Source of the DNA: Crassostrea angulata
Taxonomy: Eukaryota
Reading direction: 5' to 3'
NCBI RefSeq assembly: GCF_025612915.1
Contig: NC_069116.1
Coordinates: forward strand, 6,090,123 to 6,154,122
DNA: 64,000 bases
The position numbers were made by a program, and so were the translations under genes. Below the pieces are notes generated by a model. The model worked only from the letters and a program-made list of their open reading frames with translations, was not told where the DNA came from and searched no databases. Below, in pieces: positions 7,388 to 60,283 of this stretch (position 1 is its first letter; each line of letters opens with the position of its first letter).

Positions 7388-7454
7388 TTAAAGAGAGATG
7401 ACTTAATCGGGTTTCACATAAAGATATCAGTGTATAGGAATATTCCACACATAG

Positions 7455-11468: not shown

Positions 11469-11538
<70 letters not shown>
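11469..11538. repeat. (AT)35 microsatellite
   Basis: Perfect AT dinucleotide run of about 70 nt. Confidence 0.95.
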
Positions 11539-11542
<4 letters not shown>

Positions 11543-39339: not shown

Positions 39340-39862
39340 CATTTTTAGTCCCCTACCGGTTTCACCGGAGGGGACTATAGCTTACCTCTGCGTCAGTCAA
39401 TCCGTCCGTCCGTCCGTCTGTCTGTCTGTCCCACTTCAGTTTTCCACTGTTTTTTTCTTTATGCGTTGGACGAATGATATGAAACTTGCTGAGCAGCTTC
39501 AAAATATCAAACTACAGATCAAGTTTACACTTTTGTAGCGTCTGGTTGACATATTTTCAAGAAAATTAATTTTTTATTTTCCAATTTTTTAATGTTCGGG
39601 TTCGTTATCGGGCTCGGTGTGTATCAAATAAACAAGGAAAGTATGTTGTCAGTAATAATATCGTGCATTACTTGGACCATTCCTTTTATTGTTTCTAACA
39701 AACAAATAAGTTCTGTAAAATAGTATCAAGCATTGTGTTGTAAATTTAATCGACAGGTTTTTTGTATTATTACAATCGGGTTCGTTATCGGGTTGGTCTG
39801 TTGAGACGGTAAGAATAACAGTGCATTGTTTTCACAAATTTCTACAAACCGGTAGGGGACGT
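39340..39862. repeat. Palindrome-bounded composite repeat carrying (CCGT/CTGT)n microsatellites
   Basis: agtcccctaccggtttcaccggaggggact is a hairpin, and the end aaaccggtaggggacg at about 39846 is inverted relative to it. Internal (ccgt)3(ctgt)3 and a duplicated cgggttcgttatcggg(c/t)t segment at 39591 and 39776. A similar (GTCY)n tract occurs at 45966-45990. Confidence 0.4.
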
Positions 39863-41252
39863 GTATTGCTTATGCAATACTCTTAGAATGCTTGTTTTAA
39901 CTGGTACCGGACAAGCGTTAATGTCGAGCCCTATATGTTGTTCAATTTTATTTCAATACTTTGTCCCAAGTTTCTGATTCCATCATGTTTTGCTTAAAGA
40001 CCAAGAAAATAAGCACCCCCTTTAAATTAACCTGGCCAGTGTAACCCTGTCAATCAACTGAATTTAGGCCCGAGATTGGATGTTAGAAAATGATTAACAT
40101 TTGTTTACTCGCCCTTTGTCTAGCGCTTGCGACGATCGTGCAATTAACTTTTGTCTTCTGATGCATACCATGATGAAAATGCTATGTCTTTTAGCACTAT
40201 GAAAAAAAGAAAAAGACAGAGATTAAATTTTCTGCTTTTGAAAATTGAAAGATAGGAATTAAAAATTGACTCGAACTTGGTTTATGCACCACACCAAATG
40301 CCCTGATTTATACCTGCAGTTTATCAAATTTATGTGGCGCCAATCATCCAAAAAAACTTCTTTTATTAATAAAGATGTTTGTGAAAAATTGAGTATTTAG
40401 AAATAAATTAAATCAAATATTGCGTCCACAATATATAACGTTAGTTATCATATTTCTTTGAGAAATTTCATCACGAGCTGAAACTGGAAAGGGAACAAGT
40501 ACAAACAACTGTTGCACATCTGGTGCTCTTTAGCAGCTGATCTGAGAAGTAATACAAATGTAATATGTTGTATAAATGCATTAGTATTTGAGTACGGTAC
40601 AATGGTCACATATTGTTGAGAGCATTTTATAACCTCGTGTATATAGACATATATACACAAGCGAGCGTGTTTCCCTCGGAGCTCCACACCTCTTTCAATA
40701 GAGGCTCCACCCCCACCTGAACTTACCTGAGGTAAACTGACCTGTTAAAAACCTCGGCCTTTAATATTTTGATACTCATAAATACCTTTGCGTCCTAACA
40801 ACTTTCATCTACTAGAATGAAAAAAGTCTGCATTTCTGTGTTGAAATGCCTTCTCTACCACTTTTTATTTCAATACCCAACCAAAAATAGAAAGTGTTCA
40901 AGAATGCGTTGTAAATGACAATAATAGTACCTGGATAATAATGTTGAAAAATTGTGTTAGGTTCACGAGTATTTCATAATGGAGAGAAAATGTGAACCTT
41001 TCCAATTATATATCTTCATAAGAGATTTGTTAATTAATTGTTAAAGGTATAAATAGATAAAATGTCAATGAAAAAATCTTGGGCTTTTCCCTTTGTATCG
41101 ATTTCAGAGTTTTTGAAGAAAAAAAAATTCACTGATCAAGTGGACTGATGATTAAAAAATATTTACTGGTCTAAACAAATATTCACAGGTTCATATTTGG
41201 CTTATATAATAGTAAAAAAACAAAAATACTTTAAAAAATGACAAATTTACAG

Positions 41253-42217
41253 CAGGGTTGGCAAAAAATCGGGAAATACTCATATTTCCCAGGACGGTTG
41301 GAAATACTGGTAATTCCCGGGAATTACTGGTATTTCCAGGGAAATACTGGGAAATAAAGTACAACTACATATTATAGTACTTCATACTTAAGACATAAGT
41401 CTTAATTAAATCTGTAGGGATGTAGACAATAGTACACCTTGTCAGCAATGACATTCTATAATGTTCTTTGATTTTAACAAGTTTTGACTGGTCAGTAATG
41501 CATTGGTTATATCTTATGAATACTCAAAACATGGTTCATTCATATACCATTGTAATTTGTTTTTAAGGCTTTAATCAGGTATAGATGCATCTACACAGTT
41601 ATCATAAACATGATATCAAAGGTTCCATTTTCTGGTTATTTGGTGAATATTAAAATGGGGCAAGAAAATTGTGAAAAATAAAGTGTGACTGTGTCACTAC
41701 CTCAGTATGCAACACACCTAAGAAGAAGCCAATTAGCCCCACTCATAGTATATATCTCCCCAAAACAGGAGCACAAAACTGTCAAGTGTAATTATTTATT
41801 AAACAACATGTGTGATTATTGAATTTTTACTTGCAACACCTACACTAATTATAACAGTTTATTTTGTGCTTTGAATTATAAATCTGTAAAACACAAAACT
41901 TGAAGTTAAAAAACTGGACTAAAATTTGTACATTAGCAGCTATAGAAATCTTTTGGAATATGTAATCTGGTGAATTTAAGATTTATAAACTGACAGTGAA
42001 ATGGGGAAGTATAATAAATTGGTTTTTGATGCTTACTGTTAATATCTTTTATCATAAACATAAGTTTTACATTGAACAAACTAAAGAAATAAAGATTATA
42101 AATTTGTATTTCCCAGTATTTCCCAGTTAAGTGGAAAACAGTAGTATTAACCGGGACGGGAAATACCGGTATTTACCAACGGTAATTCCCAGCACTGGTA
42201 TTTCCCGGCCAAACCTG
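41253..42217. mobile_element. hAT-superfamily-like MITE (965 bp) with an 8 bp target-site duplication
   Basis: TIR CAGGGTTGGC... against reverse complement CAGGTTTGGC..., extended by about 100 bp of subrepeats (GGAAATACTGG-like) at both ends. Flanked by the direct duplication ATTTACAG at 41245-41252 and 42218-42225. No ORF inside. Confidence 0.7.
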
Positions 42218-42684
42218 ATTTACAGTAAACCAACTTTAATTTGTAACAACATTATTCTGTGATTTACTGACACACACTGGTTTGCCACGACTAATTTTCC
42301 AAGTAAGCCTAATAAAGACTTGTGTTGTTATAACAGCCATACGACAAGGGCTGGTTTGGGGCAAGAAATATTCGCGACGACGATGCTCTCGCGAACCTCG
42401 CAAAAAATTCTCACTTGTGAATAAAAGTTGGTTTGCAATATATCGATATTTTATGCATACTAGAGAAAATTTTCCTGAATGTCTGCCCATTACTTTTAAT
42501 TTCTTTAATTTGTAAATGTAAGGCTATAGCCAAGTTGTATTTTATTTAGTATTTTGTTCCGCAGAATGTTTGATCAAGTTAATTGCTGTATAAAAAGTTT
42601 TTATAAATCAAATTAAAAAAAAGTTCTTCATTGAAGAATAAATTGGAAATCATAGCTGTCGTTGAATATCTAGAGCCATTTTAA

Positions 42685-42945
42685 CAAGACTTTAGACTTT
42701 CAGTAGGGCGTACCTATCTATTGGTTGCGCCAAAACAAGTAAAAAATGACATGGTTTCAAGCAAAATATACACAGATTGCGTAGTCTTAGCTCAAAAGCC
42801 AGAGAAATCTTGTTGATTTCAAAGAGCCTGACTGAGTGGCCAGCAATGAAATAGACAGGCCTACGTCACATTGCTGTTTGACACAACTACACAAAGTTTA
42901 AGCTCTTGTTAAAATGGTTCTATCTGAGACCTTACCGCAAGTATC
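42685..42945. repeat. Dispersed repeat family D, copy 2
   Basis: See copy 1. Confidence 0.7.
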
Positions 42946-43892
42946 TTTGATTTTTTTGTTTATTATCCTACCCTTACAATATGTTAACTAAGATCTTGTC
43001 GAGTGTGAATTGCTTTGTTAAATTAAATTAACGTAGCTCGAGGGTTTGCTGATGTCACAATAGGAATCGACGTATAGAGTTGACCGTCCTAGTTAACTCA
43101 TACATATTTTTTAAAATGACAAATGAGATATTCAGAAGCATGAAAGAAAATTTTTCAAAAAGCTTAAATTACTGTTTATACAAACATTTATAATTATCAG
43201 GTGCTGAAAACTTAAAGATGTCACATACATTCAATGTCACATTTTGTTCTATAAAGTATGAGTGTGCGTTGGAACTCTTCCATTTAAAATCATGTTTTAA
43301 AATAGACAAGTAAATTAACTGAACCGTATATGCATTAACTTTTCTTTTTTTTACAATTATAACTTCCTTAATTTTAACTACCAATAAAATTTTTAAAATT
43401 CTTTTGGCTTGAGCTAATTTTTTTTTATGATTACAAACTTATTATGTCAGAAGTTGTCTGGCAATTATTTTTTTTTTGCATTGATTCAGAGAGTCATAAA
43501 AACAAATATAGCAATTTTCTATATCTTTGCAGCCTCACATTATTCATTTTGCATTTGTGCATTTGATAACATTCACAATATTGTCTAACTAGTATTTACA
43601 TGCTCTAAAATGTGTTTGTCACCTAGTCATGTCAATAGATGCATTTCAAATTTTGGGTTCTCTGACGTGAAGAAAAGATGACGTCAGGCTAACGTCTAGT
43701 GAAAATATAAGGGTTTGAGTTTGAGAAATCTTTAAAGTTGTTTTGCCAAAAATTGGCCGATGACACATACTGATTACATTTTATGAATTGATTCATAATT
43801 ATCTCCTCTGTTATTGTGTTAAGTATTATTAATTTCGTCTGAATCGTTTAAAAGTTTGGAGCAGGCAGAATTTATAATTTTTCTACTCCAGA

Positions 43893-44012
43893 ATGAAACC
43901 TAATTAAATGCATATATGAGACTCCTCGACAAGTTTGTGTATGGGTTATATGCCACTCAGGTGACCGTTAAGGCCAATTGACCTCTTGTTTGGAGAAATT
44001 GACACAAATAAA
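43893..44012. repeat. Local direct repeat, family E, copy 1
   Basis: ...gactcctcgacaa(g/t)tttgtgtatggg(t/c)tat...caggtgacc(g/c)ttaaggcc(a/t)attg(a/g)cctcttgttt... repeated about 415 bp downstream. Confidence 0.65.
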
Positions 44013-44305
44013 AAAAGAAAAAATATCTTATGGCGATTTATCTAAAGCAGTAGATGCAGATTGGGGGAGGATTTTTATTAATGCACCTTTTTTGGTTGTA
44101 AGATTATGTATGTTGAATCTCTGTTGGGGGGACGAAGTAATTAAATGATATAAATAAAATAATTTTACAGATGAGTTTTAATTAAAGATTTCACCTGTGA
44201 CAGATTGAAATAAATCCAAGATGCACACATTTTGGTCACTTTCACAAAACTCTCGGTACTTATTAAGTGATCAAAAGTTACAGGAGATGGGTTATTGATA
44301 CTCCA

Positions 44306-44432
44306 TAATAAAACTCAATTAAACACATTTATGCGACTCCTCGACAATTTTGTGTATGGGCTATGGTTTTCAGGTGACCCTTAAGGCCTATTGGCCTCTT
44401 GTTTGAGCATGAAAGCTGACACAAATCATTAT
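44306..44432. repeat. Local direct repeat, family E, copy 2
   Basis: See copy 1. Confidence 0.65.
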
Positions 44433-45722
44433 TTTTAAAAGCCTAAACCAATATATCTGCTGCATTGTAAATAAACATGTATTGCAGTTTGATTACTTGA
44501 AGCACAGATGGGCTTGGACAAAAGTTCACAGTTTGCAGAGAATGATCCATAACATTCACACAAGTCCTGCACAATGATGCATTCCCAATGTCCATATTTT
44601 GACACTCTCAAGTCTAGTGCACGCTCTGATTTCACACATAAACATTTATACAGTTGCCTATTGGAAAATATATCACAACAATATCTGCATTGGCACGACC
44701 AGACTTGGCACTGCCAGTCTTGTTTTTTAATATTCCTGTCCATATTCTTATACAAATAATGTATTCATTCTTCTTTTTGATGTATCATTCATTATGTTAG
44801 TTAATTTACAGCTTTTTTAGTGGATTTCTTCTGATCTATGTAACCCAGGGCAGACTACCATATTTTTCGAAAATTAAGTCGATACGGTTTAATGGGTGAA
44901 GGAGGCCGTTTTTTGGCAAAAAAATATAAAAAAGTATAAATAGGTCGACTTCGAAGAATTGGACGAAAAATTACCGCTAGTTTAAATGAATAAATGGTTT
45001 AAACTAATAACATTATCATATAGTAGCCTTTAAATCTTATTTCAGTTTTAAACAAAAGGGAAATAAAATGCATTTCTTAAAAACATCATAAGAACATTTC
45101 TGAAATTGCATGAACATTTTCAAACCAATTAATTCAGTAAGGCCGGGATAATTTAAGATCGTTTTTATGACTTCCTTGCTGGTGTTAACCGGGAGATAGT
45201 AACCTAGCCTGGAGGCATGACTACGGTAGCACATGCAACCCTGTGTCTCGGTGTGACTTTTTACTGTGTATATACACACGAGTCAACCCCTGATCTAATC
45301 GAACCCTTTGGGCATGAATAGCACGTGCCGAGAGTTCAACTGTGTATAAACAAAGAAAGCGCTACCCAGACTGATTTCAGAGACACCTGGCTAAGATTTC
45401 ATCTAGAGTTTTATTTTGAATATACAGAAAAAACTTGAACATGTATTCTATTATAAAAACAAATCATTTTTTTTTTATTTCTACCCGACGATATTTCCCC
45501 CCGTAATTAACCTTTGTACGGTTCTCATTTTACTTTTACCACACGAAATCAATTTCCCGTTTATCTTAAGCACACGATCAAAATGCATGACAGCATGGAA
45601 TAATGTTTGAAAGATGATTCAGTCAGCGATCTAAGTAAGAAATGTAAGAAGAAATAAATTTTTTCACATTTAATTTGTTTAAATGACAAATTACTACATT
45701 ATATTGATTAAAATCCAGACGA

Positions 45723-45890
45723 TTTTACACAGAATTCAAGCAGTATTATAGTAAACACTCAAGATTTTATTGGAGGGTTGTATAAATCTTTGCAAAATTT
45801 CATATCAAATTTTCCAAAAAAAAACAACGAAGGTCCAAAAAGTATCGACCTAATTTCCGAAAAATACGGTAATTGGGAGGATAAATGGAT
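45723..45890. repeat. Dispersed repeat family C, copy 2
   Basis: See copy 1. Confidence 0.6.
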
Positions 45891-46727
45891 TTTATATAAG
45901 CACAACTGTATCATATTTTAAGCGGTTTATAAAAAAAATAAGTTTTTTTATTTTTTGTCTGGTGTCCATCCATCTGTCTGTCTGTCTGTGTAAACTTTTT
46001 ACATTTTCAACTTCTTCTCCAAAACCACTGGGCCAATTAATAAAGGCCCATGCTCTCTTTTAAAGGGAATTACTGAATACAGGGAATATTCGCCCCTGGT
46101 TTATTGTCGCCTCTTTCGCCCTCGTTGTCAGAGGGCGAATTGAAGACTGGGCAAATTCAATGTTGCAAAGAAAATCTCTGTTAACACAACTGCATCTGGG
46201 TAAATCAAGACGGGGTGAAAAAGCTTGCAAGTGTAAATGAATACAGTAAGGTGTAAAAATTCACTGAATGTTATTTAAGTTTATTGTTTACAGAAAATTT
46301 CAGCTTGACGCCTTTGTGGTTGTACAGGCCTTTGAATTTTTGAATCAAGAATTTTTGGATGAGGTTGGCCCTCCCCACTTGGAAAACAATGCTACATACC
46401 TGAGAGCTAATTTTTTGAACAAGAAACAATTTGATATTTTCTGTGTAAAGATAGTACCATTTTTGTCATTTGAAAATTGTTGTAGTGTGGGCGACAAGAC
46501 AAATTTACGGTAATCATTAAACAACCAAGTATATTAATCTGTGTATTCACATTATCTGTGTAGGGTTGGCATAACAGATGTTATTAATGGATGTGTGCAT
46601 GATCGGGGCCTTAGATCACACCTGCTTATCAAAATCAAAGTGTTTTTAATGTCAGTTAAAAATGAAAAGTATGAATATTATGTATGATTTAATACTATTC
46701 ATTATATATTAGGATTTGTTTCATCTT

Positions 46728-47060
46728 TTAATATATACAATTGCAAATATGCTACCATATATGAACCTTTAGAATAGCAAAAACTTTCAATTCTGTATGA
46801 ACATTTTCGTGATGTCACAATGATAACCGCATGCACTTATTGCTTGTCGCTTCAATTATTGTAAACATAAAATTTTTGAACGATTTGTCTTTTTCAAACG
46901 TAAATATAAGTAATAAACAATAATGTTAAAAAGTTTACCAGGATATCAAGTTGGATCAAATCTATTGAGAAGCTTTTTGGCTTCACAGGATTTGATCATG
47001 TGACCAACCAACTTCATATCCCGGTGACCTTTTAAATTGCTGTTTATTTCTTTAATACTA
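46728..47060. repeat. Dispersed repeat family B, copy 2 (about 350 bp upstream of the zinc-finger gene)
   Basis: See copy 1. Confidence 0.7.
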
Positions 47061-47410
47061 GTACCCCTCTGCGACCCTACCAAAGCTACTAAACATGTAA
47101 ACACATGCATTAATTTTTAATCGGTGCATAAAGTGGTAAGAGTTTTAAAACTTAGTAAAAGGTACTAACACAGATACTATAGCAAGACACATAGAATTAA
47201 AGACATTTACAGTATTTACAACAGAAGGTTTTTAATGAAGATTATTCACATTATAACTATTAGAAGAAAAAATGCTAGTGAAAGTTTAATTTTGCGAGTA
47301 AAAAAAATCCGCTTGCTAAAATTTGCGAGCGAAAAAAAAGAAGTTAATTTCAATCCGTGTTACTGTTATAATAATATATATATTTATTGTTTGTCCTTAC
47401 ATTAATTAAG

Positions 47411-48470
47411 ATGGTGTCATTTTTCAGATTGATGATGGAAGCCTCTCAAGATGAAGTGGATGGACAAAATTTTGTCCAAATTAATGAAACAAATGCTAAC
47501 TCAAATTCAGTAGAGAATTCTACTCATAATTATATGGATGATGACAACAATGTTCCAAGCATGCATCCTCCCTCACCAAAAGAAAATAGCTTTGGAAAAT
47601 TGGAGAGAATAAATTCAAGAAACATATTTGAAGACTTGCTAGTAGAAAGTTCAACCAGTGGTGAAGAGGTTCAACATCAGACTTGTCCAATCAATGAAGA
47701 TTCCAAAAAAGTGAATGATAAATCAATTTCACAACAAAGTGTGTTAAGTCTGAAAAAAGTCTGTACTTTAGGGGCCAGACAGTGTTCAAAAGAAAGCAAC
47801 CAGAAGTTTAAGAATACCAAAGACAACACCAATTTATCTGATGAAGACCTACCTTCTGATGTAGTCAACAAACATGATGATTTGATTCATGTTACAAATG
47901 AGACAGACAACCCAGTACTAGTAACAAATGAGGAAGGAACCACAGAAGCAATAGACAAAGAAGTTGAAAAGGAGGATAGAACAAATGAAGAGATTGGCAG
48001 CAAAGAAAAGGAAAAGGAAGGAGTAATTAAAGTAACTGATAGCCAAGAAAAAATGGAGGATGGGACTACAATGGAAACAGACAACCAAGAAAGAAAAGAG
48101 GGAGAAACTTTAGACAGTACAAATAACTTACAGGAGAGGGAGGAAGGAACATCAGAAAATTCAAATGATCTAGAAGAAGAGAAGGAAGGTAGTAAAGAAG
48201 AAACAGAGATCCAAGTTAGGATGTTGGATGAAGCTTCTTCAGAGACAATGAACCAAGTTGGGAAGGAAAATGGATCTACCAAAGAGAGAGACAAGCAAGA
48301 AGTGAAGGAAGAAGAAACTGTAGAGACTAGCAAGATACTTTCTGCTTCTGAGGAAACATCAAATGAGACACCTAAAAAGTCTTCCTCTAAACAAGTCAAT
48401 AATGACAATACTGAAGTAGATTTAGAAAAACAGGATAAATTACCAGAAGATACTGACAATGAGGATAAAA
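47411..48470 (+). CDS. Giant C2H2 zinc-finger protein gene, first recovered coding exon (acidic, disordered N-terminal region)
   Basis: ORF in frame from ATG 47411, with a good Kozak context aagATGG. In-frame ATGs at 47432 and 47435 are alternatives. A tttttcag at 47420-47427 could instead be an acceptor from an unseen upstream exon. E/K/T/S-rich sequence. GTAAGT donor at 48471, phase 1. Confidence 0.55.
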
Positions 48471-49089
48471 GTAAGTAATTAAATCCATATGAAATTTATC
48501 ATATAAAAAATATATTTGGAAATATCAGTTTTATGTCAAATAAAAGTTGGCAATCTCAACCACTGCTTCTATATGATTAAGCCTTTCTATATTAAATCCT
48601 TGCATCTCTCAATGTTATTTTATTCATTTGCATTTTAATAAAAATATTTGGTTGTAAGTGCCATTTATAAACATTCATGTTTTCATAAATGAATTACAAT
48701 CAACTATAAATAAACCCTGACAGTTTAAGTAAGTGTGCAAGGTTAAAAATATTTGTTTATGGTAGATTTTCAACAGTATATGCAGACAAGTGTTATGTTT
48801 GACCTGAATGGTACCGTATAATTTCCTTATCTATTTTAATAGAAAATTAATCTGACACTGGAATTGATCTCTTTTGATGTTGATATATGTTGTTTGTGAA
48901 AAACTTAAATATTTCTTGTTAATGTTGATGGTTTTATACATCTATGTGGTCCCCCACACATGTAGCCTTCCATCAAGGACTCTCTTATCATGAAGATGTC
49001 ACCAATATTTTTTGAATAGTAAATCTTCAGGAAATTGAATGTTATGTTTATCTTTAAGGGACGTTATAGTAACCTTATCTACTTAATAG

Positions 49090-49160
49090 GAAACCAATCT
49101 GACACCATTGAAAATGAAACAACACATTCAGTTGGGGACAAAATAAAATTACTTGAGCAG
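49090..49160 (+). CDS. Zinc-finger gene micro-exon (71 nt)
   Basis: cttaatag acceptor and GTATGT donor. Encodes (R)NQSDTIENETTHSVGDKIKLLEQ. It restores phase exactly between the exon ending at 48470 (phase 1) and the exon starting at 50129 (phase 0). Confidence 0.55.
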
Positions 49161-50128
49161 GTATGTCACTTTAAACTATTGTTTAGTATACAACTAAATC
49201 TTTTTTCATATCTTAAATGCATAGGTTTTTTTCAAAACCTATTTTCTTTACTAGAGTAAGTATGTCAGAATAAGCCAAAACCTGGAGTGAAATAGTGAGA
49301 ATTTGAAATATTTAAAGAATCTTTCCTTGCAGGTAACTGTCCAATTTTTCGTAAACACATTGTGTCTATTTTAAACAATTGTTTCAAGGTTATCAATAGT
49401 TTGAAGAAGACTGAAATCTTATTAGAATGAATTTGATTGTTGAATATGCTGCATATTATAACAATCTCCAATCCTCAGAATGTTTAATAACTCCAAATTA
49501 TCCAGAATTTTTTTATCCTTACCATAAATTGGCCTTTAATGTAGACAAATTTAATTAATCTTAAGTGATTATATTATGTTAAGCCCTGCAACAAAGTTGT
49601 TGGCTTAGTTGCTCCACGGAGACCTATTACCTAGAGGTAAATGGGTTCGAGCCAACATTGCAACAGTTCAACCTTTTTTTCTAATTCGATCTCATATTAT
49701 TTATTCCATTATATTCAGCATGGCCAAAATTGCTATAATTTTGTAAAATGAATAGATACCCTCAAAAAATTTCTTTTTAATCTGGTTCATTCTTAAATTT
49801 GAAAGAATAAGTAACATTTTTAGAATAAAAAAATACTTTGAGGCTGATGATCGGATAGAACCTTAAGCAGATTTAAATAAGTTTGAGATTCTAGCTTGTT
49901 ATGGCAGTGTACTTGACAAAACTTGTGAAATCTTTACACAAATTCTATTATGTCATGTGTGAATCTTTTGCATTTTAATCTTTAGATTATATATAAATTA
50001 TCAAAGATAGATCTTATAGGAAAGATTTGTACAGTTTCATATTATAACTGATGTGTTGGATAACTTACCAAGTATAGTGAAGGTTTGTGTGATGAATATT
50101 ACATGTTTTTTGTTTGTTTATGCTTTAG

Positions 50129-53100
50129 ATTGAAGATAAAACTACAAAACCAGAAAGTCAAAATGATACTGTAGATCTAGATTGTGAGGAATCAGAAAAC
50201 CTAGTGATTGATATCCAAGAGAATAGTTATGAATCAAATGTAGAAAATAGTGTAGGAAAAAAGAATGTCGATCTAAGTTCTGCAGAGGCAAAGGAAGAAA
50301 AATATAATCAATTAGGGAAATTGATAGAGGAATCTAAGGAACAAAAATTGCCTGAAGCTGTAGATATACAGGAGAATACTGATTCTATACATGGAGAAAA
50401 TCTTGTTCGGAATTCTAATGATGTCAATACTGATGCTGTTAAGCAGAAAGAACCTGAGCGAAGGGATAACCAAAGTGTTTTTGAGGATGGTGTTGAAGAA
50501 ATACAAACTCTATTACAAGAATTTGTGAATTCATCAAGTAAACCTGTAGTCATATCAGACAATAGCAAGGCATCATTGGCTGGAACTGAATCACAGATAG
50601 ATTCATCACAAAAAGGATCAACAACGGAAGCAGCCTGGTCTACAGTTGGATTAGATAGATGTTCTTATTGTCTGTTCACAACTGATCAGAAGGAATTGCT
50701 TGAAACCCATATGTCATCTTGCTCAAGAAAAAATACCAAAAAAGAAGAAATTTTCCTGGTGTATTCAAGTAACAACAAATATGGATGCAAAAATTGTCTT
50801 TTCATGTCAGCTCAAAAAAAGAAATTCGAAGAGCATGTTGCCTTTCATATTCTTTCAGACCCTTACATTTGTCTCACTTGTATGGTCACATATGATTCAA
50901 AGAAGGAAATAGAAAAACATGTTAAACAAGTACATTCCAACAAAGTGGTGAAGTGTGGCTTAAGAGGATCAAAGAAAATTAACAAAATTATTGAAGAGCT
51001 GCATAGTAAAAAGGAAGTAACCTTTATTGGAAGAAAGGTTGAAAAGAAAGCATTGTTGCCCATGATTGATCAGAAGGAAAAACCTGCTCAAAACTTTTCC
51101 ATTACAACAGTAGGATCTGAAGGGTCATTACCAGTTACTGTTGAAGCATATAATTCCAAAATTGCAAAGAACAGACAGTTTAAATTTGGACAGGATAATG
51201 GATCTCAGATAACCACTAAGCCCAACACAACTACCATTTTATCAGTTCCAAGTATTCCTAAATTTACACAGAGTGTAAGTTCAATTCAACCAAAAACATT
51301 TTCAGCACGTGCAAATGCTCCTATATTTTCACTTGCAGGATCAGTTTCCAGTTCAAGCATGCCAGTAATAGCGTCTTCAGTCCACCAAGCAGTTCTTGCT
51401 CAGCCACTAACATTTCCTGGACAAGCAGCTGTCCAAGGTCCAGTCCTATGTACTGTTAGTAGTCAGTCACAGCCAATGATTCTTGTTCCAGTTCAGCAAA
51501 TTCAAACAAGGGGCGTCCTTGCTGGACCATTTCAGATAAAAGCAGGACAAGCAGGGTCCCAAATTTTGCCAGTCTCAAAGTCGCAGTTTGTTAATATCAG
51601 CCCAGCACCCCCAAAACCAATTTCTGCAACTGCAGGCACCCAAGCTCAAAGAGTAATTGTTGTTAATACTGGAAGTTCATTAACAACAAGTACTGCCCAA
51701 ATCAATAGCAATAACCAATTAAGCCAAACCAGGAATACCATTCCAACAACCGTTAACATGATTGGCATGCAACCTGTCAGTTTAAAATTGAAGCAGCAAG
51801 TGGATTCTTCAGCTGGGGATGCTAATGGAAAATCTGCTATTATAAAACTTACAGTTAACCATGGTGAGAGTGCAACAAAACCTGAAAATCAGCTGATCTT
51901 CAAAAAAACTGGATCTGTATATTTTTGTCATACATGCAGTTACAAATCAGATTTTGAGGAAAACTTTGTAAAGCACATATGGGAGCATATGCACATAAAA
52001 AATATGTGTGCAGTTCAAGAACATCAAATATACAAGCAAAACGTGCAATGCAATATTGTTACAAAAATAATGGATAATTTAAAATGTGCAGCTGCTGAGG
52101 CCGAGAAAAAACAGAAAACACCATTAGAATCCAAAAATACCATACCAGAGCAGATTGTCCTCAGTTCTGATGAAGAGGAAGATGTTTCAAAGCAACAGCC
52201 AGCTTCAGCAAGTAATGAAGAATTGGATTTGAATGCCAGTGCAAATGATCTTCAAATTAGAATAACAAGTACATTCAGTTTGAGAGAATCTGATAATTTT
52301 TCAGACTTTACAGCTACAGAAACAAAGGATACAAATGAGAGTGCAAAATACATTGATGATATGAATCCTGTAATTGAAGGAAAAGAAAATGAAATGATTC
52401 CAGAGAAAGAAATGTTTAGGGAGCTATCGCCTGATAGAGAGAGCAATGTAGGAGAAGTAGAAGAAATTAATGATTTGGTAGCAGAAAATAAAAAAGGCAC
52501 TGAATCTGAAATTGCAGGCAATATTGCATCTAGTGAGGATAGCAACAGTAGATTTGAAAAATATCCACAATCTGTTTCTGAAAATACTGAATTGGACCTT
52601 AATTTCTCTGAGGGATCCACTTCTTCAAATTTGAGAGAAAACAGTGATTCATCAAATAAAATAGATGAACAGAGTGATTCATCTAATGGAAAAGATAAAG
52701 AATCACCAAAGACTGAAGAAAACAAAGGAATTTCTTTGAAATTTTACCAGTGTGGATTTGAGAGCTGTGGATTTGCAGTGTCCACTTCAACTGAATTTAG
52801 GGAGCATATTTCTCATATACATTCAGGAGCAAAAGAATTCAAATGTGCACATTGTGGTCATAAAAGCTTCACGGAAGAATGCCATTTTCGACACATATCT
52901 TGCCATGCAAAAAACCAATCAGGATTGTTGTTTAAATGTGCAGACGGTTGCAAATTTGCGTCAAATATCTTGAAACATTTTAATGAACACTTGGAAACGG
53001 TACATCCAGCGTTGAATTCATATAAGTGTTCCTCATGTCAAGAGGTGTTTGAAAAAATAAATGGACTTATTAACCACTGTGAAACTAACAAATTGCAATT

Positions 53101-56100
53101 TGTATTGTGTCCTTATTGTACCATGCGTGATCCAAATAGAAGGGTTATTTTGAAACATATTTCAACATCTCATCCAGGGAAACCAAGACAGATAACTGTC
53201 ACAGCACAACTTGTATGCCAAGAAAGAGAAATGAATTCATTCTTGGCCCCAAAAGCCAAAGCTGTCTCTCCTGGGCCATTATCAGAAGAGAGAAAGGGAT
53301 TACTGAATAGAGTGGATGACTTACCAGTTGAATTGGACAATATTAAAGTTGAAAAGAACGACAGTATTGAAGAGGAAAATGTAACAAATCAACAAAACGA
53401 ATCAGAATATCATTGCTCAGAAAGAGATAGTCCATATTTAGATGTCGTTTCCATTGCTGGAGACGGACAGACTAATGAAAAAACGGGTTACAAACTTGGA
53501 ATTGGAGCATTAATACGATGTAACAGGTGTTCTTATCTTGCTGGAAGTAATTTACTTTTAAAGAAACATAGAGTCCAACATGCCAGGGGGAATGACAGAA
53601 GTAGGCCTTTCTGTTGTCCTGTCTGTCCTACTTCAAGTGATTCAATTATGAAATTTGAAAAACATATCAATCTTCATGAAGGTGACCATGAAATTAAAAT
53701 GTTTATGTGTGAGCTGTGTAATTACCAAACTAATGTCTCTGACAAGATCAAATTTCATCTTCAAAAAAGTCACAAAGGATTTGACCCGAGACAAGGTTAC
53801 AGAACTAGAATGTTGAGAGTTTCGGTAACAGTGTACGCCTGTGAAATTTGCCAGAACTTGTACAAGTCTAGAAAGGAATATGTAGCACACATGTCAAAGC
53901 ATGGGGTGAAAGTGAAACCTCTTTCAATTGACAAACATCATTGTGATTGCTGTTCCTTTAGTTGTGACAATTTGGCTAGCTTGATTGAACACACAAGAAT
54001 ACATTTACTAGTTACAAATTCATCACCAGCTGATGAAGTGAAACAACAGAAAGTCAAACAATACTCTGGTCCAAAAAAACCATTTTACATTCCTCCAGGA
54101 AATGTTTTCAAAGACTTCATATCATGTAGCGAGTGTCCGTTTAAAACCAAAACAAGGCTTGACCTGTTGCGTCATATTAAAAGTCACCAACATTTGGAGC
54201 CAAAAATGAAAAAAATGCAGAAAAAAGATGCAAATCCTCAAGAAAGAACAACAAGAGAACTTGTAAAATTTCAGTTTGGAAAAAGAAAACATTCCTCTGA
54301 CAACGAAAGTAGTAAACGCAAAAGGGAGATTAATTCTGAAAGTGAAGAAGAAACTTATGATGACCATGATTTCCCAGTTCCAAAAAGAAAACAGGTGGCC
54401 ATGAAGTCTACAAGTGGAGCTAAAAGTATTAAACAGTCACATTCATACTTTCTGGGTGGTGACATTCTTCACAAAAAATTACAACCTTGCTTTACAAAGG
54501 AGGAAGATGAGCCGATGTTCCAATGTGTGATGTGTAAAGATGTGTTTGAGGACAAATATAGTCTTCACAAGCACATTTTGGACCACATGGATGTTTCTTT
54601 TTACAAGTGCAGCTATTGTGAAAATGGAGAACTTGAAATATCTTCAATGGTTTCACACATACAGAAAATGCATCGCAAACCAATAAAGCACACACGTGTT
54701 ACAATGGAAATCATAGAAGATGATATCAATAGAGCGATTCATGCATTGAAAGCGAAGCAACATTGGGGAGAACCTGACTCTTCTCTTCCGGATATAAAAC
54801 CTAATGTACTTGACCAGAAAGCTTTTTCTCCTTACGTTGAGCAGAACATCAACTCTCCTACTGTCTTGACAAATATACAAAGTTCAATCATTCTGAATCA
54901 ACCAAAATTGACATCAACTCCAGAGAAAAACAAACTACCAGAGTGTGTCATTCCTTTTGGTTCTAGCTACAAGTGCATTGTTTGCAATCAACAAGCTATC
55001 CAGTCCTACATTTTGGTCAGGCATGCCATGACACATTGTTCCTTAAAAAGGTTTGTGTGTCCATACTGTGACAAGCGGTCTCACTACAAATCTGACGTAT
55101 GCAAGCACATTCATATGAAACACAAAGGTAACAAAGTTTTTGTGGCATACGACAAAACCAATCTGGAAGTAGATGCTCAGTATATTGCCCCTCCTATTAA
55201 GGAACAAATTTTGAATGCCCCTGATAATGACTTGCAGAATAAGTCTACAATAAGAGATGACGTTGAAGAAAATGTTGATGATGTTATAGTGAAAAGGGAA
55301 CCTGAGACAGACACTCAAGTAATTGAAGGTAGTGACAAAAAAGGGAAGAAGGTAGTTGTTGGATTTAGATCAGTATACAAATGTCTTCTTTGCAAAACAA
55401 CGTTTAAAGGAAAAGGTAAAATTTATAAACACATACGGGAAACAAAATGTAAACGTCCTTTATGGCGTTGTTCTGCTTGCAAAACAAGGAAGTTTAGAAG
55501 CGACAAAGAAAAAGTAATCAAAGACCATGTTAAGGAAGTACATCAACTTGCCAAAGATGCCAAACCTGTGCTTTGTGCTATAAATGGAAAAGTTCGAAAA
55601 CATACCTATCCAATAACAGTTCTTAAGAATGCAGGAACAAATGACACAAGGAACACTACTGAATTCGGTAGTGAAGAGACAATCAAAGAAAGAGAATTGA
55701 GTGGGGCCATTGCAACGGTTTTAAAAAAGGGTGATTTATGGAAATGTTCAAACTGTCCATACTTAACGAATTCCCGAGCAAACTGCGTTCGCCATACATT
55801 CACCCATTCTATTTTTAAAAAATTCGGTTGTCCAGTTTGTTCATTTAGGGCAAAATGTAGTCGAAGTATCAAAAACCACTTGAGAAACTGTCATCCACGG
55901 GAGAGAATAAGATTTAAGATATACACAGAAGTAAATAACTCTCCCAAGAAACCTCTTGAAAGTCAGAAAGTCAAGGAGGAAAAAGTTGCCATGACGCCTG
56001 AACAGTCTGTGTCTTTCCAGTGCTTTGATTGTGGATTGGTTTCTGAAAGGAAATCAAGCATGTCTAAGCATATAAATGCTAAGTGCTGTACACCTCTGAA

Positions 56101-57252
56101 AGGTTGTTCTGAATGTGAATATATGACCATTAAAAAGGATGAAATAGCAGATCATTTAAAACAATGTCACAAATCAGCAACATCAACTGATTTGCCTTTA
56201 AGTGAAAAAATAATAACAGTTAATCCAAATGATGAACCAAAGTCACCGGTGAAGGCTGAGAAAAAGTCAAAACTATTTTCGTTGAAAGTTAAGCCACTAA
56301 TCAAATCCCCGATATCAAAACCCCTATCAAATGAAATGAAAATGTGGAGCGAGGAAAATGAAGAACAAAGTATAGACTGCCCTGAGTGCAATGAAACTTT
56401 CTTTGAGTTAAGAACATTTAGAGACCATTTTGTAAACAAACACCATGGCAAGAAGATGTTATGTGGGGAGTGCGAAGAATATGCTGCACATCTTCCTTCT
56501 CTGATATTTAGGCATGCAAGACTCTTTCACAACCAAACAAAATTGGAAGATATCAAGATCAAAGCTGTTTCACAGAAAACAATTGAAGAAAAAGGACTTG
56601 ATCAGCGTTTAGTTATTTTGTATAGATGTCCAAAATGTGGGAAAATCTCAAGAAGATGTTCGCTTAAAAAACACATTTACACCCATTACAATTACAAGCC
56701 GTATCAGTGCAACCACTGTGTTTTCAAATGCAGGATACCAAAGAATATCAAAAGCCACATTTCAAAAATTCACCCAGGTAAACCTATGACTGATTTTACG
56801 TTTCGCAAGAACCTAAAACTGGAAAAAGAAATATCAGACATTTTGGAGTCGAGCAGATATCAAACACTGTCAAGGAAATCACAGCTGAATGCATCTTTGG
56901 GAAAGAATCAAACATCTACATCTGAGAGAATCGTACCAAGCAGGAAAATGAAAAAAGAAGGACATGAATCGGATGAAGATGAGGAAGAAGAAAAGGATGA
57001 TGAAGAGGAAGAGCCAGAAGAAGAAGAAGAATCTGAGGAGGAAGATGGAGAACCTCGGGGTGATTTGAAGAATATGTTTAGTCCATGTCACAATTACAAG
57101 GTGGAATTCGACGACCGTCGACAGAAAACTATCTACAAATGCAGCATCTGTCCTTACCAAAGCACTGTGAACAAAACTATGGTTACTCACTTTTATCATC
57201 ATGTACCACATGTTTTCAAGTGTCCTTATTGTGATTTCCAAGGCTATCCTAG
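50129..57252 (+). CDS. Zinc-finger gene giant exon (7124 nt), encoding about 2375 aa with most of the C2H2 fingers
   Basis: tgctttag acceptor. Uninterrupted ORF to a GTAAGT donor at 57253. Contains a Q/S/P/V-rich low-complexity block, acidic tracts, KRKRE NLS-like motifs and more than 25 C-x2-C...H-x3-5-H fingers, many followed by H-P-G-K. Confidence 0.85.
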
Positions 57253-57342
57253 GTAAGTTTACAATATATATTGTATATTTAGAGGAAATCAATTTCATAT
57301 TTCCCGAAAACATGTAGATTTTCAAATATTTTTACTTGACAG

Positions 57343-57578
57343 ATCAAAAATTGCAAACCATATAGTGAAGCTTCATCCAGGCAAAGCTGTTCATGTTGTT
57401 GATTTAAGGCAACGTATGGGAAATTTGAAGTTTCGAAATTATGAAATTAGGACACATTCATCTAAATCCAAGCAGAAACCTAAGAAAAATATGCCTAACA
57501 TGGCAAGGGAAACACGTTGCTTAAATGAAAGTCGGGCAACAGTTTTTCGCAAAAGAAAAAGAGATCAAGAAGGAACAG
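57343..57578 (+). CDS. Zinc-finger gene exon 4
   Basis: ttgacag acceptor. Completes the finger ...CPYCDFQGYPR|SKIANHIVKLHPGKAV, then a basic KRKRDQEG segment. GTATGT donor, phase 1. Confidence 0.7.
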
Positions 57579-57671
57579 GTATGTATAAAATGTAAATTCA
57601 TAAAAACGAGATCTTGTGATATTTACCATCAAAAGTTCTATTTGATTATCATTGATACTCTTTTTTTCCAG

Positions 57672-58393
57672 AAGCATCAAAAGAATCAGGTAAACTTGTG
57701 TACAGCTGTAACTACTGTAATCACAAGGCTAATGGGCTGTATCACTATCGACAACATTTGGCAAGCCATAATGGCTTCAAACATCTTGTTCCAGGAACAC
57801 AGATAGAGTCGAGATTGAAATGCGGCTATTGCTCTTATCTTGCTGTCGATGATGATGACTTCAAATCTCACATGGAATATCATTTTGCAACACGCCCATT
57901 TTCCTGTCCGTACTGCAACTTTTCACAGTATAGGGCAAGTGGGATAACAAATCACATCAAACGCTCTCATCCAGGAAAAGCAGTTGACGTGGTTAAAGAA
58001 AGTGACAGTAGTTGTCATATCGGTCATGAATTTGATGCTAAAGCAATGATTGTGGATTTCGAACCAAACGTGAAACTTATGGACATTTTTGCAATGGATC
58101 CGGAGGACTTTGAAAAATTGTTGAATAAATGCGAGGTGTGTGTAATTGATTTAAATTACATACCAGACGAAAAGTTCGATGCAGTATCAAAAACACTTGG
58201 GTTGGAAAACGAAGAAAGAAATGTTGATGATGAACTTGAACCAAGTGCTAAAAAAGTGAAGAGAGAAAATGTATGTGAAGATAAACAACAATTAGACGAG
58301 TCTGAAGATTTGGAAACCATGATAGCTAATGGCGAACTGAAAATAGAAGAAAACCAAAAATATGATGATGTGAGTGACGATGACCTTGATTGA
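57672..58393 (+). CDS. Zinc-finger gene terminal exon (3 more fingers and an acidic C-terminal tail)
   Basis: tttttttccag acceptor. Encodes EASKESGKLVYSCNYCNHKANGLYHYRQHLASH...ITNHIKRSHPGKAV...DVSDDDLD*. Stop at 58391-58393. Confidence 0.75.
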
Positions 58394-58467
58394 TCTAGAA
58401 CTATAATGAACTTTCATAGTTGTAGTAAATTTGAGGTATCAGTTACATGGTGAGAACAGGTTGACGT

Positions 58468-58473
58468 AATAAA
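58468..58473 (+). terminator. Candidate polyadenylation signal (AATAAA) for the zinc-finger gene
   Basis: AATAAA lies about 75 nt after the stop codon. A second AATAAA occurs near 58835. Confidence 0.35.
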
Positions 58474-60283
58474 CTGCTTAAGTAAAAGGTGCCTCTAAAG
58501 CTCCAATTCATATAAATTGTGCTACGAAAATGAGCTACAGTAGGTGATTCTTTTTTATACCAGTAGATGTGTTATTGTTGACCATGGTGTCCACAAACAA
58601 CTGTTCATATTCAATATCAATTTGGTGCTGTAAACCTCAATGTAGTATTAGTAATGTTGTTTTGTTTTTTAAATAATTAGTTGTAATTGAATGTAACATT
58701 TAAATGTATGTCCATTTTTATCTTCTTCAATATATTTGATTAAACGAACTTATCTGCTGTTAAACATATTTCACAGAAAGCAATCGAAGTAATTTAGCCT
58801 AGAATGCATATAGGGTTGAAACTCATTTTAGTAAATAAAACTGCCGTTTCAATCTTCAAAAATCTCGGAATTCAAGTCAAAGTATCGATTATATGTACAA
58901 TATTTTACAAACTTTATTACATGCATATGTATCGTGCAACTGATCTTTTAATTGACAGCGATGTTGAATGTCATAAAATTGCTTGGTTCTATATTGCGTT
59001 GTGGTTTTTCCTTCGTTTATTCTAGTCTAGGTTTGTGTGCTAAATATTTTTTTTCTCCTTGCTATCCATGGTATCCAAAGTATAATTGGGGGAAAAAGAA
59101 GTCTAACATGCAATCGAATTTTGAAAATTTCGAGGGTATTCAGGTGCGAAGTCCTAGATCAGTATTCGATATAATCGTGTCAGAAGCTAATATGTTTGAA
59201 ATTTTACTGTTTTAAAAAATGTGAAGGAGTCCTCTGAATCTCCAATGAACGTCAATCCTTTCAAATCATTTCAACTCGATGTGCAATATTTTCGAGTTAA
59301 ATAGAATTAAGAATACTATTGCACATCTATTTCCTTATTTAATCTTATTCCTAATAGAGGTATTTAAAAGAAGGTACGTAATGCCCAATGTTCGTCGGTG
59401 CTTGGAATTTCTAATAACCATTTGGACAATTTTTGTCGGGCACTGAATTTTCGGATTAAGGTCTATAAGGTAAACCAATGAGTCTCTGTGAAAACATATC
59501 CCTTCGTCAAAGTCAAGTGAACAGTTAATTTTAACAGCAGAAACGTTATCAGATACCAGAAGTCGCCATTACGAAGCGGTAAAATTTGATGTTTCATTTG
59601 ACTACACAGTTCAGGTTTTTCATTATAAAAATGGAAATGTATATTTAAAATATTATATCCATTACCTTATTATCAAGCATTAGTTATACCCCCGCAAACG
59701 TTTTTGTTTGGTGGTTTTTTTTTTGGAGGGGGAGGGGGGCCTATATATGAATCACCTTGTTCGTTCGTCTTTTCGTCTGTCTGCTATTTCGTGTCAGGTC
59801 CATATCTTTTTTATCATATGTAGAAACATTAGAAGTTCTTCACACAAAGATAGCTTATGACCTGAGGATGTTCCATGATTTGCCCCAAGGTAAATTGGGC
59901 AGAGTGAAGGTCACTATTTGGAAAAGGAGGTTATTATTTCACACAGAGATTGCTTATGACCTGAGTGTGCCGTGACCTTGGCGTTTTAAAATCTTTTTTA
60001 ATTAAACTTAAACATTTCGACCCAGAAAATGTGGAAATAGGGAACCGGATAATCTTGCACATGCTTAAAAATTTGGTTGACCCTTTTCTCTAAATAATAC
60101 AAACTATTATGCTCTGCATTTTCTGATTTAGAATAAAAGGTCAAAATTGGGATTTTTAAGTTAATATTTCAATAGCAACTAAACAGATCTTCTTAATTTT
60201 TAAAAATATAATACATAAACAAAATTGAAGAATCATTGTTATTTACAAGCCAATGCCAACTGGAGGTACACGGAAATTTGCGT

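Follow-up and report, generated by a model that had tools for sequence, protein, structure and literature searches.

Does the long open reading frame found in this stretch of the Crassostrea angulata genome (the window, 64,000 nucleotides) belong to a real gene, and is its product related to the very large vertebrate chromatin zinc-finger proteins that it resembles in layout? The first-pass annotation, made from the letters of the sequence alone, had proposed a C2H2 zinc-finger protein of about 3070 residues encoded largely by a single 7.1-kb exon, and had likened it to ZNF462, ZNF407 and RLF. We are confident that the locus is a six-exon gene for a 3063-residue protein with dispersed C2H2 fingers, that this protein belongs to a mollusc family, and that it would most likely serve as a nuclear, chromatin-associated scaffold. 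The features of the gene are collected in Table 1.

Gene structure and expression

The open reading frame on the forward strand (50204–57256; 7053 nt) runs for 2350 codons, a stop-free length expected by chance with a probability of about 1e-79 given the base composition of the window. As had been proposed, it forms the body of a 7124-nt exon, and this exon is joined to its neighbours in an independent transcript contig (L001; Logan SRR8551091_2442) of 9872 nt that is 99% identical to the window. The contig aligns at 98–100% identity to each of the five coding exons in Table 1 and crosses every one of the four splice junctions between them, among them those of the 71-nt micro-exon, for which the first-pass annotation had sought RNA evidence. 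Because it carries no introns, it is a transcript and not genomic contamination. Window and transcript differ by a 66-nt in-frame repeat indel near 48315–48324, in the first coding exon. In public read assemblies, 757 member sequences fall into the 90%-identity cluster of the protein that this contig encodes. The region is thus a real, expressed protein-coding gene with one non-coding 5' exon and five coding exons. Scans of the window for tRNAs and Rfam families found nothing.

The five exons originally drawn (47411–48470, 49090–49160, 50129–57252, 57343–57578 and 57672–58393) do join in phase, giving 9213 nt or 3070 codons, the only stop being the last, and they are bounded by good splice sites (AG acceptors, GTAAGT or GTATGT donors). 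The ATG at 47411 that had been taken as the start, however, sits in intron 1 and is absent from the mRNA. What the transcript supports is the alternative also raised at the time, an upstream exon (36793–36833) spliced onto the acceptor at 47427/47428 (...tttttcag/ATTGATGATGG). Translation therefore begins at ATG 47432, the first after an in-frame TGA that lies within the 5'UTR exon, and the protein is 3063 rather than 3070 residues long, still mostly the product of the one giant exon. The 5' end of the non-coding exon and the 3' end of the last exon are open, because the transcript contig begins and stops there. The outcome is a transcript-verified model in which this very large zinc-finger gene has gained a distant 5' exon and its start has been corrected.

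Table 1. Exons, conserved blocks and motifs of the gene, in window coordinates.
Feature	Position	Strand	Remarks
5'UTR exon	36793..36833	+	Transcript nt 1-41 align at 100% identity; donor GTAAGT at 36834
Intron 1	36834..47427	+	10.6 kb; gap in transcript-to-window alignment between 36833 and 47427/47428
First coding exon	47428..48470	+	Start ATG 47432 (MMEASQ...); disordered N-terminus, rich in E/K/T/D/N
71-nt micro-exon (RNQSDTIENETTHSVGDKIKLLEQ)	49090..49160	+	Transcript nt 1151-1221, 100% identity; splice sites read directly
Giant exon, 7124 nt	50129..57252	+	aa 371-2745 of the 3063-aa protein
N-terminal three-finger block	50615..51067	+	aa 533-683; regex fingers at aa 548, 590 and 618
Low-complexity block	51086..51898	+	aa 690-960; S/Q/T/A/V/P-rich by composition
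SUMO-interaction-like motif EQIVLSSDEEED	52148..52183	+	Hydrophobic core, then Ser/acidic tail; from family alignment columns
Linear motif LQIRITSTFSL (I-x-I-x-ST-[FY]-SL)	52250..52282	+	Conserved in family alignment columns
Block A	52715..53257	+	aa 1233-1413; four fingers, ends in CPYCTMRDPNRRVILKHISTSHPGKPRQITVTAQLVC
Block b	54380..54802	+	aa 1788-1928; PKRKQVAMKSTSG...YFLGGDILHKKLQPCF, then a finger pair; diagnostic for the family
Polyacidic run ESDEDEEEEKDDEEEEPEEEEESEEEDGE	56966..57052	+	29 residues
236-nt exon	57343..57578	+	Completes intron-split finger (…FQGYPR/SKIANHIVKLHPGK); basic cluster RKRKRDQE
Last exon	57672..58961	+	Stop codon 58391-58393; 3'UTR of at least 568 nt

Architecture of the predicted protein

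By general sequence criteria this is a C2H2 zinc-finger protein. A regular-expression scan found 33 non-overlapping C2H2-like units, in line with the earlier count of at least 30, most of them with exact C-x2-C-x12-H-x3/4-H spacing; at 10 junctions adjoining fingers lie 5–9 residues apart. The recurrent arrangement is a two-finger module in which a C-x2-C-x12-H-x3-H finger is followed by a linker of 5–9 residues and a C-x2-C-x12-H-x4-H finger, often then by PGK, and the four finger ends quoted in the first-pass annotation (HISTSHPGKP, HISKIHPGKP, HIVKLHPGKAV and HIKRSHPGKAV) are all found in the translation. The canonical TGEKP linker is missing from these fingers, many of which are isolated, and the ligand of some may be protein or RNA rather than DNA. 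A PDB profile search returned two-finger stretches of DNA-binding C2H2 proteins (Aart, at 4.6e-11, as well as ZBTB7A, CTCF, Gfi-1 and MBP-1). Pfam finger matches to the 3063-residue protein were all sub-threshold (the best, PF23225, reached 20 bits where the cut-off is 27), and two orthologues (P0004 and P0006) passed the cut-off of zf-H2C2_5; over the protein and its orthologues Pfam gave only sub-threshold or generic finger matches, so that no family was assignable.

Most fingers are encoded by the giant exon, as are the low-complexity blocks and the acidic run, and the last exon contributes a conserved C-terminal module and an acidic tail. Low-complexity sequence makes up about a third of the protein, and the compositional regions described earlier are borne out by the translation: the N-terminal exon is E/K/T-rich (E 23%, T 11% and K 11% over residues 150–346), residues 690–960 form the low-complexity block, and the polyacidic stretch is present. 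Between this block and block A lies the SUMO-interaction-like motif IVLSSDEEED. SUMO-interaction motifs have a core of [VIL][VIL]x[VIL] flanked by Ser or acidic residues, and the oyster motif is kept across bivalve orders in forms such as VIEVDSDD, LITISDDE and IIDITDDE; SUMO binding would be its predicted function, although so short a motif in an acidic region could also arise from composition. Two basic clusters (KRKREINS and RKRKRDQE) resemble nuclear localization signals. The C-terminal module consists of three fingers and a short helical segment (…KFDAVSKTLGL); an AlphaFold2 model of it, of low confidence (pLDDT 64, pTM 0.30), contains three finger-like units, each of strand plus helix.

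A family of giant zinc-finger proteins in molluscs

A deep HMMER search followed by clustering placed the protein in a cluster of 48 members, of which all those that carry names are from molluscs. (With the full protein as query, a word-indexed homologue search was overwhelmed by low-complexity words and gave three matches; a query restricted to the finger region worked better.) Across the members, seven blocks follow one order: the N-terminal three fingers, a mid finger with the SUMO-interaction-like motif, and blocks A, b, c, d and e. The N-terminal block scores 41–253 bits in orthologues, its order kept in all members, and block A is the best conserved, at 88–330 bits in mollusc and Lingula orthologues versus about 20 in non-family proteins. 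When a family HMM was applied, members scored 1000–3000 bits in 1–7 pieces, while non-members reached at most 800 bits in 10–26 scrambled pieces.

Unchanged block order is seen in orthologues from across the bivalves and gastropods, among them those of Saccostrea echinata (XP_061188786.1, LOC133196960), Pinctada imbricata (FSP39_010256), Argopecten irradians (XP_069136052.1), Pecten maximus (LOC117340553), Mytilus californianus (LOC127712072), Mercenaria mercenaria (LOC123534235), Mya arenaria (LOC128230593), Haliotis rufescens (LOC124131628) and Biomphalaria glabrata (LOC106068084). Like the oyster protein, they are giants with dispersed finger pairs and an acidic run ahead of the C-terminal module. 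They differ in length, from about 2900 to 5200 residues, because their low-complexity linkers expand, as in Pecten, and overall identity to the oyster protein falls from about 57% in Saccostrea to 25–45% in other orders. The C-terminal helical segment was recognizable by phmmer only in the oyster, scallop and pearl-oyster orthologues and in Solemya, and a C-terminal alignment revealed it in Mytilus as well. On these comparisons the family is single-copy-looking and collinear throughout molluscs, and uncharacterized; nearly all of its database labels are generic ('uncharacterized'), the exception being one Mya arenaria entry. Its diagnostic non-finger blocks would offer a basis for naming and annotating it.

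The family is probably present in brachiopods too. The N-terminal half of a 4758-residue Lingula anatina protein (LOC106171239) aligns collinearly to the family HMM (203 bits over HMM positions 476–1264 and 88 bits over 1310–1571), and hhalign finds one unique best register for it, at 631 versus 442 for the second. Its C-terminal half differs, being a long expansion of repeated fingers, and in block and C-terminal comparisons block b and the C-terminal module were not clearly recognizable in it. What databases list as 'uncharacterized' is a conserved family of molluscs and probably brachiopods.

Closer to the oyster, the giant open reading frame is kept in genomic contigs of two related species (L003 and L002), where it ends in ...FQGYPR and is followed by separate reading frames for the last exons; judged from these two close relatives, a giant central exon with two short 3' exons appears common to the orthogroup. 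The gene is under purifying selection, which is strong in the fingers and weaker in the linkers: in these two species, overall dN/dS values of 0.22 and 0.16 break down into 0.09 and 0.05 for the fingers and 0.30 and 0.25 for the rest. Against the closest named orthologue, that of Saccostrea echinata, the fingers are 77.5% identical with 0.1% gaps, and the remainder is 47% identical.

Alternative interpretations

Could the reading frame instead be a pseudogene, a transposable-element frame or an assembly chimera, held open by chance or by its low-complexity composition? The surroundings are rich in repeats (a reverse transcriptase-like fragment at 32802–33296, satellites at 7.4–8.3 kb of the window), and the low-complexity third of the protein could be read in the same way. 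Against this stand the minute chance of such a frame together with a matching spliced transcript, orthologues of equal exon layout in two related species with dN/dS well below 1, especially in the fingers, and collinear orthologues across molluscs; Pfam found no transposase or reverse transcriptase domains in the protein. The spliced transcript, the dN/dS values and the orthologues effectively refute this reading, to which we give next to no weight. A classical sequence-specific transcription factor of the REST or ZNF236 kind, in place of a scaffold, also seems very unlikely. The Mya arenaria orthologue bears its depositors' label 'REST-like protein', ZNF236 supplied the first named vertebrate matches in the word-indexed search (E = 1e-9 to 1e-4), and Pfam zf-C2H2_REST weakly matches the Saccostrea orthologue and a protein of the annelid Owenia, which clusters with the ZNF236-like group. 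Yet these Pfam scores (18 and 17 bits, respectively) are below the cut-off of 27 bits, and the oyster protein itself has no zf-C2H2_REST match at E <= 1. REST has eight or nine tandem fingers in a cluster, plus Sin3 and CoREST interaction regions. The ZNF236-like proteins occupy a separate cluster of 90 representatives, their matches are repeated finger-level alignments in many registers, and in the phmmer block scan the non-finger blocks of the mollusc family (block b and the C-terminal helical segment) were not seen outside the family. Whereas the oyster fingers are mostly dispersed pairs, ZNF236 has long tandem arrays linked by TGEKP. The ZNF236/Xfin-like giants, the next-best cluster in the deep search (bilaterian, about 1800–2700 residues and 30 fingers), differ in having classical tandem arrays with strong Pfam zf-H2C2_2 and zf-C2H2 matches. 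The REST-like and ZNF236-like labels were rejected, the similarity being at the level of repeats only.

We consider it equally improbable that vertebrate ZNF462 has a diverged invertebrate orthologue in this gene, although the two are alike in several respects. Both proteins are giants of 2500–3000 residues with roughly 27–33 dispersed fingers, many of them C-x2-C-x12-H-x4-H-P and in pairs, separated by long disordered linkers, and ZNF462, like the oyster protein, is encoded mostly by one giant exon. Moreover, hhalign gives 99.9% probability over 1434 columns, and the Pfam models of ZNF462 fingers weakly match the oyster protein or its orthologues (PF23225 at 20–27 bits, plus PF23075 and PF23224). 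However, ZNF462 reaches 328 in hhalign, where many shifted registers do almost as well (301, 295, 267 and so on), and this is lower than the controls ZNF236 (477), a protein of the annelid Owenia (446), one of the brittle star Amphiura (507) and a poly-finger protein of Nothobranchius (537). By blastp the similarity is at most 58 bits at 20% identity, and every part of the mollusc protein matches one C-terminal finger cluster of ZNF462 (1970–2370). The family HMM breaks ZNF462 into 10–13 short pieces in scrambled order, totalling 320–350 bits, and places it no higher than 75th, amid the ZNF236-like background. To the extent that clustering and naming could show, ZNF462 is absent from the best 150 matches of the deep search. 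All six ZNF462-specific Pfam finger families (PF23077, PF23223, PF23075, PF27047, PF23224 and PF23225) are present in genuine ZNF462 proteins, whereas the oyster protein matches only two, both under the cut-off of 27: PF23225 at 20 bits and PF23075 at 14. In orthologue P0006 such matches are out of ZNF462 order (11th, 2nd, 7th), and PF23225 scores higher, at 35 bits, on a ZNF142-like protein. The two proteins share no non-finger blocks. With no collinear full-length similarity by blastp, family HMM or hhalign, and with scores under those of unrelated multi-finger controls, ZNF462 orthology was rejected; the matches being weak, non-collinear and outscored by ZNF236 and other controls, the likeness to the vertebrate protein is one of architecture only. 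The names ZNF407, RLF and ZNF292 were not among the matches that could be named in our searches and cluster look-ups. Of the likeness first proposed, the architecture therefore stands, and for ZNF462, which was compared directly, a specific sequence relationship does not; this sharpens the first-pass annotation more than it contradicts it, as no orthology had been claimed there. A giant single-exon multi-finger architecture with H-x4-H-P fingers should thus be cautiously interpreted, as it is not evidence of ZNF462 orthology.

Putative role

We infer that the most likely role of the oyster protein is that of a nuclear, chromatin-associated scaffold that would bind both DNA and proteins. Its dispersed two-finger modules may make many separate contacts with DNA or with partner proteins, while the long disordered linkers, acidic and Ser/Gln-rich, would recruit cofactors together with the SUMO-interaction-like motif. 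Vertebrate giant zinc-finger regulators act in this general way. Hints of a nuclear scaffold are the basic clusters, the 29-residue acidic run and the IVLSSDEEED-type motif, whose conservation supports the scaffold role insofar as the motif is correctly predicted. A nuclear location, binding to DNA and to SUMO, and any regulatory role are all put forward here as predictions.

ZNF462 is a heterochromatin targeting factor that recruits G9A/GLP and HP1 via its fingers 15–27 and also interacts with WIZ, and ZFP462 has been described as vertebrate-specific in a preprint (10.1101/2021.06.28.449463). More speculatively, the mollusc family could be a lophotrochozoan-specific chromatin scaffold that uses dispersed finger pairs and a SUMO-dependent hub to bring silencing machinery to many places in the genome, as a convergent functional counterpart of ZNF462, or else a ZNF462 orthologue diverged beyond recognition; we regard this as unlikely. 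Were the gene a true ZNF462 orthologue, a gene implicated in neurodevelopmental disease would lose its 'vertebrate-specific' label.

Gene structure and 5' end

The giant C2H2 zinc-finger gene lies in AT-rich sequence (~33% GC) of eukaryotic character, and its core is a single ORF on the forward strand (50204-57256), whose 2350 codons would be free of stops by chance with a probability of ~1e-79, as computed from the base composition of the window. The first-pass annotation had placed five coding exons here (see table), with AG acceptors after pyrimidine-rich tracts and GTAAGT or GTATGT donors. Joined, these give 9213 nt with one stop, at the end only, and encode 3070 aa; all of the peptides quoted at that stage are found in the translated exons. 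A homologue search recovered a 3084-aa protein (P0001), 99% identical across the entire query, which is encoded on a 9872-nt contig (L001) assembled from the public run SRR8551091. This contig aligns to the window at 98-100% identity, with breaks that coincide exactly with the predicted exon junctions, and since it is free of introns it is a transcript. The five-exon structure with its giant exon is thus borne out at all four coding junctions, including those of the 71-nt micro-exon; gene structure and expression are established, and the gene call is correct and well supported once its 5' end is corrected.

The start proposed in that annotation, ATG 47411, has to be given up. The first 41 nt of L001 match an exon 10.6 kb upstream, directly followed by a GTAAGT donor and joined by splicing to the acceptor at 47427/47428, an arrangement that had been flagged as the alternative. 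ATG 47411 is therefore intronic, and because the upstream exon contains an in-frame TGA and no ATG, translation starts at ATG 47432 (MMEASQ...), giving a protein of 3063 aa. The 3'UTR extends over 568 nt or more. Within the E/K-rich exon, L001 (nt 938-995, against window 48315-48324) carries a 66-nt (22-aa) in-frame insertion, KQNSKEEKEKELSKDTTNKIVE; the transcript comes from another individual, and a degenerate repeat is polymorphic in length here. Transcript support begins at base 36793; ~70-90 bp further upstream, at ~36706-36725, TGACGTAAGTATCACGTGAC consists of a CRE-like TGACGTAA adjoining an E-box CACGTG and may serve the gene as a core promoter element.

Exons of the zinc-finger gene and regions of its protein (3063-aa numbering)
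Feature	Position	Strand	Aligned block of L001	Basis
5'UTR exon	36793-36833	+	36793-36833	L001 alignment
Exon 1, as first annotated	47411-48470	+	47428-48470	donor/acceptor check
Exon 2 (71-nt micro-exon)	49090-49160	+	49090-49160	splice sites, L001 alignment
Exon 3 (giant)	50129-57252	+	50129-57252	splice sites, L001 alignment
Exon 4	57343-57578	+	57343-57578	splice sites, L001 alignment
Exon 5	57672-58393	+	57672-58961	acceptor, terminal stop
Disordered, acidic and polar, E 17-23%	aa 1-530			composition
Three fingers	aa 533-683			
S/Q/T/A/V/P-rich block	aa 690-960			composition
Isolated finger	aa 968-992			
Second E/S/N-rich region	aa 1040-1240			
Conserved motif EQIVLSSDEEED	aa 1044-1055			family alignment
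Conserved motif LQIRITSTFSL	aa 1078-1088			family alignment
~29 further fingers, mainly dispersed pairs	from aa 1233			
Polyacidic run, 29 residues	aa 2650-2678			
Three fingers and short helical segment, then acidic tail	C-terminus			

A mollusc zinc-finger family and its comparison with ZNF462

A profile built from aa 1788-2987 and three orthologues, run against 1.84 billion representative proteins, yielded 99 matches at E <= 1e-30. When the retrieved proteins were clustered, the zinc-finger protein fell into a 48-member group (lengths 2000-5200 aa) with seven blocks in common, in identical order, and a full-length family HMM scored the members at 1000-3000 bits in 1-7 pieces. Every named member comes from a mollusc: oysters (Saccostrea echinata being nearest), pearl oyster (Pinctada), scallops (Argopecten, Pecten), mussels (Mytilus), other bivalves (Sinanodonta, Mercenaria, Mactra, Mya, Solemya) and gastropods (Haliotis, Pomacea, Nucella, Biomphalaria, Arion). 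Their database labels are nearly all generic ('uncharacterized', 'hypothetical', 'unnamed protein product', 'C2H2-type domain-containing protein'), the exception being one Mya entry, 'REST-like protein'. The brachiopod Lingula anatina encodes a protein (LOC106171239) whose N-terminal half is collinear with the family and for which one register stands out in profile-profile alignment (631, vs 442 for the next), so that it is probably a divergent orthologue. The oyster protein is a new member of this already catalogued, uncharacterised lophotrochozoan zinc-finger family. Judged by its nearest family members, the source of the window is a pteriomorph bivalve with oysters as close kin.

Family members vary in length. 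Three scallop orthologues (P0003, P0123 and P0066, from Pecten maximus and two other representatives) reach 5000-5200 aa, ~2000 aa beyond the oyster protein, while that of Argopecten, at 3216 aa, is without such extra length. In the Pecten maximus sequence, part of this surplus consists of large tandem-repeat expansions between conserved blocks, for example 'TDTDPPQDEGRQLSA' and 'GQQSQVRGPSPV...'.

The first-pass annotation had also likened the architecture of the protein to that of very large vertebrate chromatin zinc-finger proteins (ZNF462-, ZNF407- or RLF-like). For ZNF462, we retrieved real sequences and compared them in four ways, none of which supports orthology. By blastp, the mollusc protein matched mouse ZNF462 at <= 58 bits and ~20% identity, with nearly all query regions falling on one C-terminal finger cluster (residues 1970-2370). 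The family HMM matched ZNF462 in 10-13 short pieces of scrambled order, totalling 320-350 bits, the level of ZNF236-like background. Alignment of the two family alignments with hhalign gave a top score of 328 and many shifted registers at 301, 295, 267 and so on, such near-equal registers being the signature of repeat-level similarity. In the fourth comparison, unrelated multi-finger proteins used as controls all scored higher (ZNF236 477, Owenia 446, Amphiura 507, Nothobranchius 537). ZNF462-specific Pfam finger models gave sub-threshold, out-of-order matches only, and matched a ZNF142-like protein more strongly. Scores this low, non-collinear and below those of controls leave ZNF462 orthology unsupported, in agreement with the description of ZFP462 as vertebrate-specific (10.1101/2021.06.28.449463). 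On these ZNF462 comparisons, the resemblance to ZNF462-type proteins is architectural only.

Protein architecture, constraint and possible role

The whole protein contains 33 non-overlapping C2H2-like units, and at 10 finger junctions only 5-9 residues separate the last zinc ligand from the first Cys of the next finger. In these linked pairs the first finger is typically H-x3-H and the second H-x4-H, with HPGK ending four of the second fingers. When the PDB was searched by profile and by sequence, the matches were to two-finger stretches from C2H2 proteins that bind DNA (Aart, ZBTB7A, CTCF, Gfi-1, Ikaros, MBP-1). An AlphaFold2 model of the C-terminal module, of low confidence (pLDDT 64, pTM 0.30), shows three strand-plus-helix units that resemble fingers, along with two short helices.

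The giant ORF and downstream exons are retained in genomic contigs of two related species, one (L003) with 91.6% nucleotide identity to the window, introns included, and the other (L002) with ~70% identity in coding sequence only. Purifying selection is established: Nei-Gojobori estimates of dN/dS were 0.22 overall against L003 (fingers 0.09, outside fingers 0.30) and 0.16 against L002 (fingers 0.05, outside fingers 0.25). Against the Saccostrea orthologue, finger residues were 77.5% identical with 0.1% gaps, versus 47% and 13% for the rest. By these measures the selected functional units are the fingers, and the linkers evolve faster yet still under constraint.

The basic clusters KRKREINS and RKRKRDQE look like classical nuclear localization signals. 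The consensus of SUMO-interaction motifs (SIMs) is hydrophobic plus acidic, and a conserved motif of this kind in the family alignment fits it. The ~33 constrained fingers in dispersed two-finger modules, the long disordered acidic/polar linkers, the NLS-like clusters and the SIM-like motif together point to a nuclear, chromatin-associated scaffold as the best inference, one that would make multivalent DNA and/or protein contacts and may recruit cofactors.

Other features of the window

Scans of the whole window gave neither tRNA genes nor, at gathering thresholds, any Rfam match, and the only other gene-like ORF of at least 110 aa was an RT-like fragment. This ORF of 164 aa (32802-33296, forward strand), from which the 5'UTR exon lies 3.5 kb downstream, contains 'FRYIDD', an RT-like motif, as well as 'KLYDKRDDFNFSIVNFP'. 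It is presumably a piece of one of the retroelement-type repeats that are common among marine invertebrates. The repeat content also includes a perfect (AT)35 microsatellite (11469-11539) and a satellite-like tandem array (7422-8290), in which a 34-bp unit repeated 16.7 times with 89% match (7732-8290) lies within another, more diverged array whose periods are 31/68 bp.
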